A model generated the notes under the pieces. It was not told the DNA's origin. It did no database searches and saw only the letters and a program-made list of their open reading frames with translations. Shown one piece after another: positions 51,722 to 62,715 of a DNA stretch of 62,942 nucleotides. The translations under genes were made by a program, and so were the position numbers. Source of the stretch: an uncultured virus (IMG/VR IMGVR_UViG_3300034280_000588) (lineage: Duplodnaviria > Heunggongvirae > Uroviricota > Caudoviricetes). How positions within the stretch are numbered: the first letter of the stretch is position 1; the number at the start of each line of letters is the position of its first letter. The stretch is taken from IMG/VR virus record IMGVR_UViG_3300034280_000588; one strand, given 5' to 3'.

Positions 51722-52445
51722 CCTTTCATAAATTGGGTTAGGGTAGTGTGAATGTGTGGTAGTAATCCACCTCTCATTCCTTTAACTGCTTGATTCTCAC
51801 TATCTTATAAAAAAGTTGGTGCGGATAGGATGGCTATAATTCTTTAAGGTTGATAAACCTTGACAATCCTGTGGGGCTACTATGTGGTTCTTTTTAGATA
51901 TTATCAGTATCTATTAAGTATCAAACACTCTGATAAAGTGTAATCACAAGTTAGTGCAGACTATAAAATCAGGAACTTTAACAATAGGCTTGAGAATCTA
52001 TTGTAGTTTAATGGATATACAAATCCTGTTTAAAACTATTATCCAAATTGAAAAAATTCCATCAATTTGCAATTGCTAGAGTAGTGGAATACTCTTATTA
52101 AGGTCTATATAGTGCGCTATAGAAACCAACTGTTTGTAGAGATAGGCAATTTCTCTTTAATGCATATTGGTAACATGCATGAATACATTCAGTTTAATTT
52201 AAAGCAAGCCTGAGCCTAAATCAAGCCAGGAAGTAATCTACCAAAGATTGCGAGTCCTCAACAAGCTGTTAAATCAGCCAACATTCTTTTTTAGTAGTTA
52301 TTTTTTCTTATATGGGATAAAGCATAGAAAAAAATCTACACCTCTTGAAGGTTACCAAAGAGTATAAATAAATGGTAGCTCACGTGACCATTAATAGAAA
52401 CAACCTTAAAACCTTTCTCTGTAGGTATATACAGATACAATAGTT

Positions 52446-52685: not shown

Positions 52686-52920
52686 GTCTTTAAGGTTGGT
52701 CTCTCTCTGTAAAGGGAAGGCCAACCTCTATTCTAGGTTATTGGTAATCCTTGGAAACCATTTGGTATAGTCAGTATACACCAACAATAAGTAATCTGAC
52801 ATTTATGACATCAAATTTTGATTCCCTGGAAAGGGTTGTACAGCTTGTAGGCCATTGTACGTAATTAAAAACAACCTTCTGATGATGCTAACAGCATTAG
52901 TGCTAAACAACACTATAAAC

Positions 52921-53090
52921 TGTTTGTTTAATGCACCACAACTCACTTCCCAAGGGTGAGCAGATGTACACACTTATAAGAGATACAGTAACTAGATAGT
53001 AATAGGCTAGTTACCACCGTAACAGGTATCTCATTAGACAATCAGGAAGCTGAGCGTCTTAGTGTACATCTGAGTGCAGAGGGGACAACA
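52921..53090 (+). ncRNA. Twister ribozyme-like RNA (type P1, long branched P5)
   Basis: P1 UUGUU/GACAA, L1 UAA, P2 UGCA/UGCA, P4 CUCAC/GUGAG, L4 (U)UCCCAAGG, P5 CAGAUGUACAC/GUGUACAUCUG, 3' GAGGG; T1 CCC/GGG and T2 CC/GG are possible. Confidence 0.65.
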
Positions 53091-53708: not shown

Positions 53709-53714
53709 TCAGCC

Positions 53715-53742
53715 TGACCTAAGCATGTCATTAAACTGCTTA
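53715..53742 (+). ncRNA. Compact H-type pseudoknot in 3' UTR
   Basis: S1 UGAC/GUCA, S2 UAAGCA/UGCUUA, then T run. Confidence 0.45.
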
Positions 53743-54002
53743 TTTTTTCACACATTAAAATCAAAAATATGCACTGTCCTATGGGAAGGGGGTTGAGTGT
53801 GCATATAAACAAGAGCAACCCTGCTTGTTTATTTTTAAAATACGCGCTGCCAAAGCCCTTGTAGTAGTCATCCTACTACTGGTTCTTTTCATCTGGCCAG
53901 ATGATACACTATAAGAGGGACAGTACAGCTTTGCTTTGAAGACTGCATTTAGCCAGTGCAAGTGAGTGGAGAGTCATGCTCTCAAAGTCTTCTTTTTAAA
54001 AT

Positions 54003-54230
54003 ATTTCCCAATGCACATATCTCACGTGGTGTAACCACCTGATTAATATATCCTGCCATTTATGGTCTCATAGGATGAAAACTTTAATCAGCTCCCAAGG
54101 GTGAGCAGTTGTAATTCTTAATTAGTATTAGCAAGTACTCAATCTATCCCTTAATCCGTAAAGCAGTGTTCCTGTAGGATGCAAGATAGATGTTATGCTG
54201 TGCGGATTACAACTGTGTGCAGAGGGATAA
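54003..54230 (+). ncRNA. Second twister-like RNA with large L4 insertion
   Basis: AAUGCAC, CUCAC, UCCCAAGGGUGAGCAG and CUGnGUGCAGAGGG shared with 52921..53090; P5 stem has different sequence but still pairs. Confidence 0.5.
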
Positions 54231-54408
54231 TTTGTGATTATTTGTAATAGTCTCCTTTAAGAAGGCTGAAAACAGAGTTTTTAGCACTGGAGTTTGAATA
54301 GGGGATTTAACGCAGAACCAGCTATTACAAGTAATTGCAAAAAAGATTAAATAGGTGAATCTTACTACCAATAAGTGTAAGAATAATTAAAAATTTAAAA
54401 TTAATCCA

Positions 54409-60072: not shown

Positions 60073-60466
60073 GGGGGTGACAGGTATTGACCTGTTAATG
60101 AAGGTGAGTGCACATGTAGACAAAGTAGGAATGTCTTTAAATACCTGCAAACAATAAACGCTAAGACACAATCTGAGCGTGTAGCAGAAGGTGAAGCAAT
60201 CCTTGCTTCTATTTTTGCAGATGAGGCAGTAGCTGCCTGATCACTACGGGGGAGTTATCCCTGGCAACAGAAAATAACATACAGTGGACTTTCCTAGTTT
60301 CACACTTGATAGCCAAAACTAGGTGGTGGAGATGCTGACCAACTGGTTGGTTCCCATAGGGTGCAGATGACGGGGGATCTTTCCTCTTGATTATCAGTAC
60401 TAAACATGTGATACGCTGTGCTCATTGTTCTTAACAGACACCAGGGTTCGATTCCCTGCACCTCCA
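60073..60466 (+). ncRNA. ssrA: tmRNA (phage-encoded)
   Basis: Acceptor GGGGGUG/CACCUCC-A with G3.U70; T-arm CAGGG-UUCGAUU-CCCUG; AUAAAC before resume GCU; tag ORF 60160-60240 AKTQSERVAEGEAILASIFADEAVAA*; CCA not encoded. Confidence 0.93.
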
Positions 60467-60501
60467 CTGATCATGAGGGTTTAAAAACCCGCGAGGTAAA
60501 C

Positions 60502-62548: not shown

Positions 62549-62620
62549 GGTTCTATAGTTTAATGGATAGAACGGTTGCCTTCTAAGCTACAGATCCAAG
62601 TTCGATTCTTGGTGGAACCA
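62549..62620 (+). tRNA. tRNA-Arg(UCU)
   Basis: Acceptor GGUUCUA/UGGAACC; anticodon loop CU-UCU-AA (one U-U mismatch in stem); T-arm CCAAG-UUCGAUU-CUUGG. Confidence 0.9.
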
Positions 62621-62629
62621 CATGCGTAC

Positions 62630-62715
62630 ACTCAGGTGGTGGAACTGGTATACACGCAGCACTTAAAATGCTGTTCTCAGTAATGAGAGTGTGGGTTCGA
62701 TTCCCATCCTGAGTA
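62630..62715 (+). tRNA. tRNA-Leu(UAA)
   Basis: Acceptor ACUCAGG/CCUGAGU; CAGCA-CUUAAAA-UGCUG; long variable arm; T-arm GUGGG-UUCGAUU-CCCAU. Confidence 0.92.

Follow-up and report, generated by a model that had tools for sequence, protein, structure and literature searches.

Positions 54010-54226 of the window, a stretch of 62,942 nucleotides that makes up the latter half of a virus record of 124,942 bases, repeat the twister-type core of another element that stands 0.9 kb away in the same genome (52930-53083). We refer to the latter as copy 1 and to the former, which carries a large insertion in L4, as copy 2. A first-pass annotation of the locus had left two possibilities, a new twister variant or an inactive relative, and we wondered which of them applies. 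The analysis favours both: the family to which the locus belongs is a twister variant, and copy 2 is a shortened member of it that is predicted to be inactive.

By its gene content, the host genome is that of a crAss-like phage. It encodes a crAss-type major capsid protein (PF23898 Crass_capsid, E 9.1e-32), in line with membership of Crassvirales, together with a portal and a terminase, and its tblastn matches include crAss-like phages, the best match being a record labelled Leptolyngbya phage (28.5%). Copy 2 lies on the same strand as the genes, in a spacer-rich region with small unknown genes, and a 118-aa ORF starts 182 nt downstream of it. The same spacer region harbours a hatchet ribozyme on the plus strand, 2 kb upstream (51840-51974; Rfam RF02678, 82.4 bits, E 1.5e-15), that is, a self-cleaving class whose fold is unrelated and whose model does not match copy 2. 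In bacteria, twisters occur in the same genetic surroundings as hammerheads, commonly close to genes of phages; both may take part in the processing of polycistronic transcripts, their purpose being described as undefined (PMC6765202, available part). Neither an RtcB ligase nor a reverse transcriptase was found in the genome, so that nothing local speaks for a circle-forming RNA or a retro-element. Scans for sigma-70 promoters and terminators remained at background level (13 vs 13.3). A phage-encoded tmRNA and two tRNAs occupy 60073-60469 and 62549-62715 of the window, and Rfam finds one tRNA in the genome outside the window.

All core blocks listed in the first-pass annotation are present in copy 2, on the plus strand: AA at 54010-54011, UGCAC at 54012-54016, CUCAC at 54021-54025, GUGAG at 54101-54105 and GUGCA-GAGGG at 54217-54226. 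The AA of L1 takes the twister scissile-site position (54009/54010), contains the putative general-acid A, matches the published UAA L1 column (PMC8501958, available part) and is found in 144 of 150 homologs (159 rows minus 9 misparsed). The 5' strand of P2 (54012-54016) pairs with 54217-54221 at P=1.0. It is followed by the L2 linker (54017-54020), where A54017 stands in place of the conserved T2 cytosine that 141 of the 150 homologs carry and that copy 1 has at 52937; T2 is non-canonical in copy 2, as had been noticed. The same was said of P1, and no canonical P1 forms. The 5' strand of P4 (54021-54025) pairs with 54101-54105. In the sequence of copy 2 alone this stem reaches a P of about 0.29 and rests on covariation, so the locked fold described below may differ locally from the family model. 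The 3' strand of P2 together with GAGGG (54217-54226) comprises the putative general-base G54222 and the T1 G-run (54224-54226), GAGGG being intact in 139 of 150 homologs.

The insertion lies, as had been noticed, where copy 1 has its extra nucleotide, at the start of L4: 67 nt (54026-54092) replace the single U52947 of copy 1, a net gain of 66. Both hairpins proposed within it are predicted by folding, most pairs with P 0.9 and end pairs with 0.5-0.7. Stem A (54026-54038) is reduced in copy 2 to a hairpin with a 3-nt loop; in stem B (54039-54091), 54039-54046 pair with 54084-54091 (P 0.9 for 7 of 8 pairs) and close a variable loop. Next come a junction C and the L4 signature UCCCAAGG (together 54092-54100, the signature at 54093-54100), which would provide the 3' partners of T1 and T2. 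The signature occurs in 139 of 150 homologs, a count partly fixed by the search anchors. The P5 arm (54106-54215) holds about 90 nt of variable cargo. Its stem (54106-54115 with 54206-54215), in which 7 of 10 pairs show double changes, had been described as changed in copy 2 yet still paired; the pairing stands, but it is copy 2 that has the consensus P5 and copy 1 that has the variant. The cargo of copy 2 is found in no other locus save one identical contig, which is also the sole match to exact copy 2.

Copy 1 (52930-53083, plus strand) is compact and open. It keeps the T2 cytosine, has P1 at about 52926-52929 with 53083-53086 and one extra U in L4, and is predicted, from its modelled fold, to be competent to cut. 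Copy 2 folds with a z-score of -3.30; in copy 1 the score is -4.23. A 16-mer common to both copies occurs twice in the window without mismatch, with 0.21 occurrences expected even at 3 mismatches. In the genome of 124,942 bases, a descriptor composed of AA, P2, P4, UCCCAAG and GAGGG retrieves no sites other than these two; it has no match in any of 50 random genomes, and no further copy of the element was found elsewhere in the phage genome. Downstream of copy 2, at 54244-54330 on the plus strand, lies a P5 arm without a core. Along 87 nt it shares 87% identity with the corresponding arm of a compact element of the family (L092) and, judged by this identity, is a remnant of a third element.

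In twister ribozymes, L4 forms both pseudoknots. The accessible part of PMC6154101 describes two pseudoknots from L4, a G/A catalytic pair and optional stems P0, P3 and P5; a hairpin at the P3 position is found in homologs L001 and L045. The layout in Table 1 of PMC8501958 (available part) reads L1 UAA, 4-bp P2, GC, P4, L4 GUCCCAAGC, P2' and GAGGG, and copy 1 has the order UAA, UGCA, CC, linker, P4, U-UCCCAAGG, P4', P5, UGCA, GAGGG. Since copy 1 reads CC in the L2 position, its T2 would be CC/GG in place of GC/GC. Such a C-C/G-G T2, a compensated version of the GC/GC published in the same part of PMC8501958, is possible in 126 of the 150 homologs. The second T2 pair is contested by the fifth P2 pair, and 10 of 150 cannot form it. 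As far as sequences can be compared with those in the available part of PMC8501958, all twister landmarks are in register.

Set against type-P1 twister (RF03160; rice Osa-1-4; the Schistosoma mansoni Sma-1 series), the family shares, in identity and order, L1 AA, P2, L2, P4, UCCCAAG-N, the position of P5 and GAGGG. It also shares an optional P3 (L001, L045) and its site, a phage spacer near another ribozyme class. It differs in several points. Compact forms carry one extra U at the start of L4, whereas expanded forms have two helices (67-358 nt) between P4 and the first L4 base, which would turn L4 into a multi-way junction. T2 is CC/GG with a competing fifth P2 pair, the arms are long and variable, and in copy 2 T2 is broken and T1 predicted to be blocked. 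Copy 2 itself retains the N/AA site (C54009/A54010-A54011) and the general-base G with GAGGG (54222-54226), and family covariation argues for its P2 and P4. In place of the conserved C-G pair of T2, which copy 1 has, A54017 faces G54099. The CCC of L4 and the GGG of L1 that would make up T1 are complementary, but the G-run is taken by 54007-54009 in a folding model that cannot score pseudoknots. The L4 motif UCCCAAG-N is present, but 67 nt from the 5' strand of P4 and not in a short terminal loop. Judged by these landmarks, copy 2 works like and derives from type-P1 twister; it is not filed as a member of that class because T2, the short L4 loop and an Rfam match are all wanting.

Rfam gave no match over 54003-54230 at E<=10, including the twister, twister-sister, pistol, hatchet and HDV-like models, and RF03160 gave 0 matches at E<=10 on the whole genome. 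In 20 homolog loci at E<=1 and in 20 more at gathering, neither a twister model nor any other matched the element, and compact homologs fail too: Rfam misses the whole family. Our literature search found no paper on an L4-inserted or locked twister; published twister collections may list compact members. As stated in the available part of PMC10085705, a search for twister permutations beyond the known ones found none further. Some likeness to copy 2 is seen in the T-variant twisters of S. mansoni (PMC8501958, available part), which have an altered 5' side of P1/L1 and inactive 0-1A forms. These head Perere-3 retrotransposons and have an intact L4, whereas the genome of copy 2 is without reverse transcriptase and the predicted inactivation of copy 2 consists in a helix over the G-run and loss of T2.

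Homologs with the insertion exist. A core-only pattern gave 121 viral loci of about 220, from which 95 distinct elements were parsed, 20 of them expanded. Applied to 596 loci and the window, the parser returned 166 distinct elements; after three misparsed ones (L151, L017, L121) were dropped, 88 compact and 75 expanded elements remained, a ratio that is not a frequency because later searches were aimed at expanded forms. The inserts of these 75 (of 163 distinct elements) measure 67-358 nt. A pattern describing only the insert had 79 distinct matches, 76 of which lie, as read by eye, in a twister-type frame and 3 of which are chance-like; a strict automatic count gave 51 with both flanking blocks. 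In the usual insert, stem A leads into an A-rich internal loop and an inner stem; then comes stem B, and last a C. The inner stem and stem B each bear a variable arm. The inner domain was parsed in 58 of 69 expanded elements and is missing from copy 2. Inserts similarly short as that of copy 2 occur in L038, L086 and L188, with the 5' side intact in two of the three. Eight homolog loci lie in MAG contigs of unrelated taxa and are probably mis-binned phage DNA.

The insert covaries. In a rank test on 68 unique rows (69 elements, after removal of six names and of rows with P4 other than 5 bp), a G-C/A-U swap in stem A (46/21 of 68) ranks 1 of 7260 column pairs. P4 pairs rank 2, 3, 4, 7 and 11, the fifth P2 pair (C-G to U-A) ranks 6 and the first stem B pair ranks 9. 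As the parser demanded pairing, which inflates its percent-paired values, the count was repeated after 44 of 53 listed elements had been aligned with MAFFT; the window's own stem A is misaligned there. In this alignment 97.7% of cells are paired and 20 of 43 pairs show double changes, whereas shuffling gave 5.6 such pairs (0/500) and the slid controls 4-11; all these covariation counts are inflated by related sequences. The stem A swap recurs (28/14 of 43), and double changes occur in 1 of 4 pairs of stem A and in 3 of 8 pairs of stem B (98.4% of cells paired). In the same alignment no double changes were found in the inner stem (0 of 7 pairs, partly fixed by the search pattern) and no covariation in T1 (0 of 3 pairs, 91.7% paired). 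Taken together, the comparison of sequences supports the L4 insertion as the mark of a widespread, covarying variant family. Since T1 does not covary and the second T2 pair is contested, even open members could be weak.

Five other genomes contain 0-2 elements each, and elements often stand in tandem. In L080, L042, L023 and L261, two or three elements follow one another, with compact forms among expanded ones and some standing back to back. Side by side with family elements, several further motifs were observed. Upstream of copy 1, a structured motif (52822-52905; GAAA, a stem, then CUGAUGA) is without Rfam match and is 88% identical in L043 and L005, with one inner stem compensated; a 19-mer from it is present in 5 viral contigs. 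As a hammerhead it was rejected by eye, the order of its parts not fitting. A small motif at 53713-53747 could form an H-type pseudoknot and is also found in L043 and L145 beside family elements. A recurring non-coding motif of about 30 nt precedes the family elements L034, L039, L071, L083, L085, L097, L102, L120 and L252, and is absent from the stretch of this window that was inspected.

Loop contents are exchanged among elements. Common content was found in 29 pairs of expanded elements, in one slot for 22 pairs, both insert slots for 4, across slots for 2 and in all three for 1, and P5 content is common to 15 compact-expanded pairs. That contents are swapped independently points to recombination, and passage through the conserved blocks would be its simplest account. 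By eye, the arms include tRNA-like T-loop hairpins, in the stem A arm of L305, which also has a longer tRNA-like stretch, and in the stem B arm of L272 and L313.

The missing P1 of copy 2 is replaced by another helix. Instead of forming P1, the 5' strand UCCC (54006-54009) is predicted to pair with GGGA (54224-54227) and so takes the G-run needed by T1. The three C-G pairs of this lock (C54007-C54009 with G54224-G54226) have P=1.0 and the U-A pair 0.91, and the lock is unchanged when 100 or 250 nt of upstream sequence are included. In a model that takes no account of pseudoknots or Mg2+, freeing the active-site bases costs 9.9 kcal/mol in copy 2 and 2.7 in copy 1.

The lock is tied to the loss of the T2 cytosine. 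With searches blind to the 5' end, two or three C's facing the G-run are found in 8 of 9 elements without the T2 cytosine and in 0 of 141 with it; by a second parser, a C-run is found in 11 of 14 and 0 of 140, respectively, the remaining 3 having one C. These are not counts of independent events, as four locked elements have one 5' flank in common. Searches aimed at short or locked forms gave mostly chance matches and few added elements, and were left out of the lock counts. Three elements had escaped the parser: L269 and L315, both locked and without the T2 cytosine, and L311, an intermediate that has the lock, keeps the cytosine and is without AA. Pairing between the G-run and the 5' flank exceeds P 0.5 in 15 of 15 elements without the T2 cytosine versus 49 of 147 with it, and the median cost of freeing the active site is 11.1 versus 3.9 kcal/mol, with overlapping ranges (maximum of cytosine-keeping elements 13.8). 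The scissile AA is intact in 8 of 15 locked versus 144 of 148 other elements, and the AAG of the insert is kept in 0 of 4 versus 47 of 54. As read by eye, the T2 cytosine was lost in at least five ways: C, CA, CAC or the entire linker is missing, or the C is changed to U. These lesions are seen in compact as well as in expanded elements and with either stem A type. In L584 (490-610), the 3' half (L4) of one expanded element is fused directly to the next P2, which gives a locked 5' end. In four locked elements (L269, L301, L315, L317), the 5' strand of P4 and the start of stem A are remodelled into a new local hairpin. The first-pass annotation had overlooked the T1-blocking helix that replaces P1, the recurrence of the T2-less state together with this block, and the greater length of the usual insert with its conserved internal loop.

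Because the T2 cytosine is missing and the 5' CCC is predicted to cover the G-run, copy 2 is likely to be a stable, non-cutting branched RNA. In the modelled fold, P2 would continue into the lock helix by way of an AA/GA internal loop, with L4 undocked. For open members, copy 1 included, self-cleavage at N/AA would be likely, with G serving as the base and A as the acid, the pair that catalyses twister cleavage (PMC6154101, available part), and their cutting would divide the small-gene transcript of the phage. Locked members may arise when recombination or mutation puts C's before AA and slippage or substitution removes the T2 cytosine. They would probably be kept for the use of a zipped multi-branched RNA that does not cut, for example in shielding the transcript or displaying arms. 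The inserted domain likely buttresses the fold, as its AAG is kept together with the T2 cytosine, yet compact and short forms show that it can be dispensed with. Its insertion point presumably corresponds by analogy to L4 location 1 of PMC11662667, where changes are tolerated according to the available part of that study. We lean somewhat, on the strength of these models, towards copy 2 being a locked RNA whose structure is still kept.

The main counterpoint is that copy 2 keeps AA, the general-base G54222, GAGGG and the UCCCAAG of L4, and that one T2 pair (C54016-G54100) is possible. It could thus be an active twister, slow or conditional: once the 5' CCC is released, in Mg2+ or through a partner or earlier processing, L4 would dock on the G-run and cutting would follow, the inserted arm offsetting the weak T2. 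Data on natural twisters from over a thousand organisms (PMC11662667, available part) would permit this in several respects: P1 is dispensable, any base at N-1 is tolerated, the C of copy 2 included, and with a single PK1 (T2) defect the mean fraction cleaved is still 0.53, down from 0.76. According to the same source, pseudoknot defects lower cleavage most in combination, simultaneous defects of the two pseudoknots not being tolerated, and copy 2 would have to recover about 9.9 kcal/mol from T1 with T2 broken. No upstream anti-lock is predicted within 250 nt, the scissile AA is also lost in 7 of 15 locked relatives, and copy 2 is without the inner domain of the insert, all of which makes activity an unlikely reading. 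We regard it as rather improbable that the locked copy is a neutral relic, in which case locked alleles would go back to a small number of accidents and owe their spread to recombination, and the fold would serve no purpose today. Accident and spread are suggested by the fusion in L584, by the one flank common to four locked elements and by the orphan arm adjoining copy 2. Changes at the base of P5 are more numerous in locked elements (1.93 versus 1.12), some of these have a remodelled P4, and an ORF follows within 400 nt in 4 of 11 locked versus 101 of 127 other elements. Yet at least five different lesions of the T2 cytosine, on compact and expanded backgrounds, each go with a lock. Of 9 locked elements retrieved by patterns that did not include L4, 8 keep its UCCCAAG (read by eye), and pure decay would have left more intermediates than the single L311.

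Two further readings concern the family as a whole. All members, open forms included, might have stopped cutting and serve as structural scaffolds or as recombination joints for arm swapping, in line with the lack of an Rfam twister match, the weak second T2 pair and the shuffling of cargo. Open forms, however, keep U/AA, the T2 cytosine, UCCCAAG and GAGGG almost invariant and in 0 of 140 cases have two or more C's facing the G-run, both as expected if catalysis is selected, and 126 of 150 can form a C-C/G-G T2; we give this reading little credence. Hardly credible at all is the idea that the insert is a second, nested ribozyme of hammerhead type or a mobile module that landed in L4. The words CUGA and GAAA do occur in the insert, as does a conserved internal loop. 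A hammerhead core consists of unpaired CUGAnGA and GAAA in a three-way junction, but the CUGAUUA word of the insert is one strand of the covarying stem B and not a free core, and the insert has no Rfam ribozyme match. A hammerhead was rejected on these grounds, and by eye none of the nested hammerhead, K-turn and loop-E readings fits well. The insert was not seen outside the twister frame, the only 3 of 79 matches there being chance-like.

Returning to copy 2 as a locked RNA with retained structure, the observations can be tentatively extended to a two-state family, a scheme that we consider possible though doubtful as a whole. One state would be a cutting form whose most conserved loop, L4, is widened to a multi-way junction that holds an additional functional domain. 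The other would be a deliberately locked form that does not cut and that emerged on several occasions when the two pseudoknots were lost together, and the conserved blocks would serve as joints for swapping three RNA arms.

A stem inserted in L4 is not among the auxiliary elements (P0, P3, P5) described for twister in those parts of the literature that were available to us. A covarying L4-inserted family missed by Rfam widens the known twister fold and points to a natural site for attaching domains. Matched alleles 0.9 kb apart, one predicted to cut and the other locked, may offer a handle on the role of self-cleaving ribozymes near phage genes, in particular on the question whether it is the cut or the leftover structure that matters.
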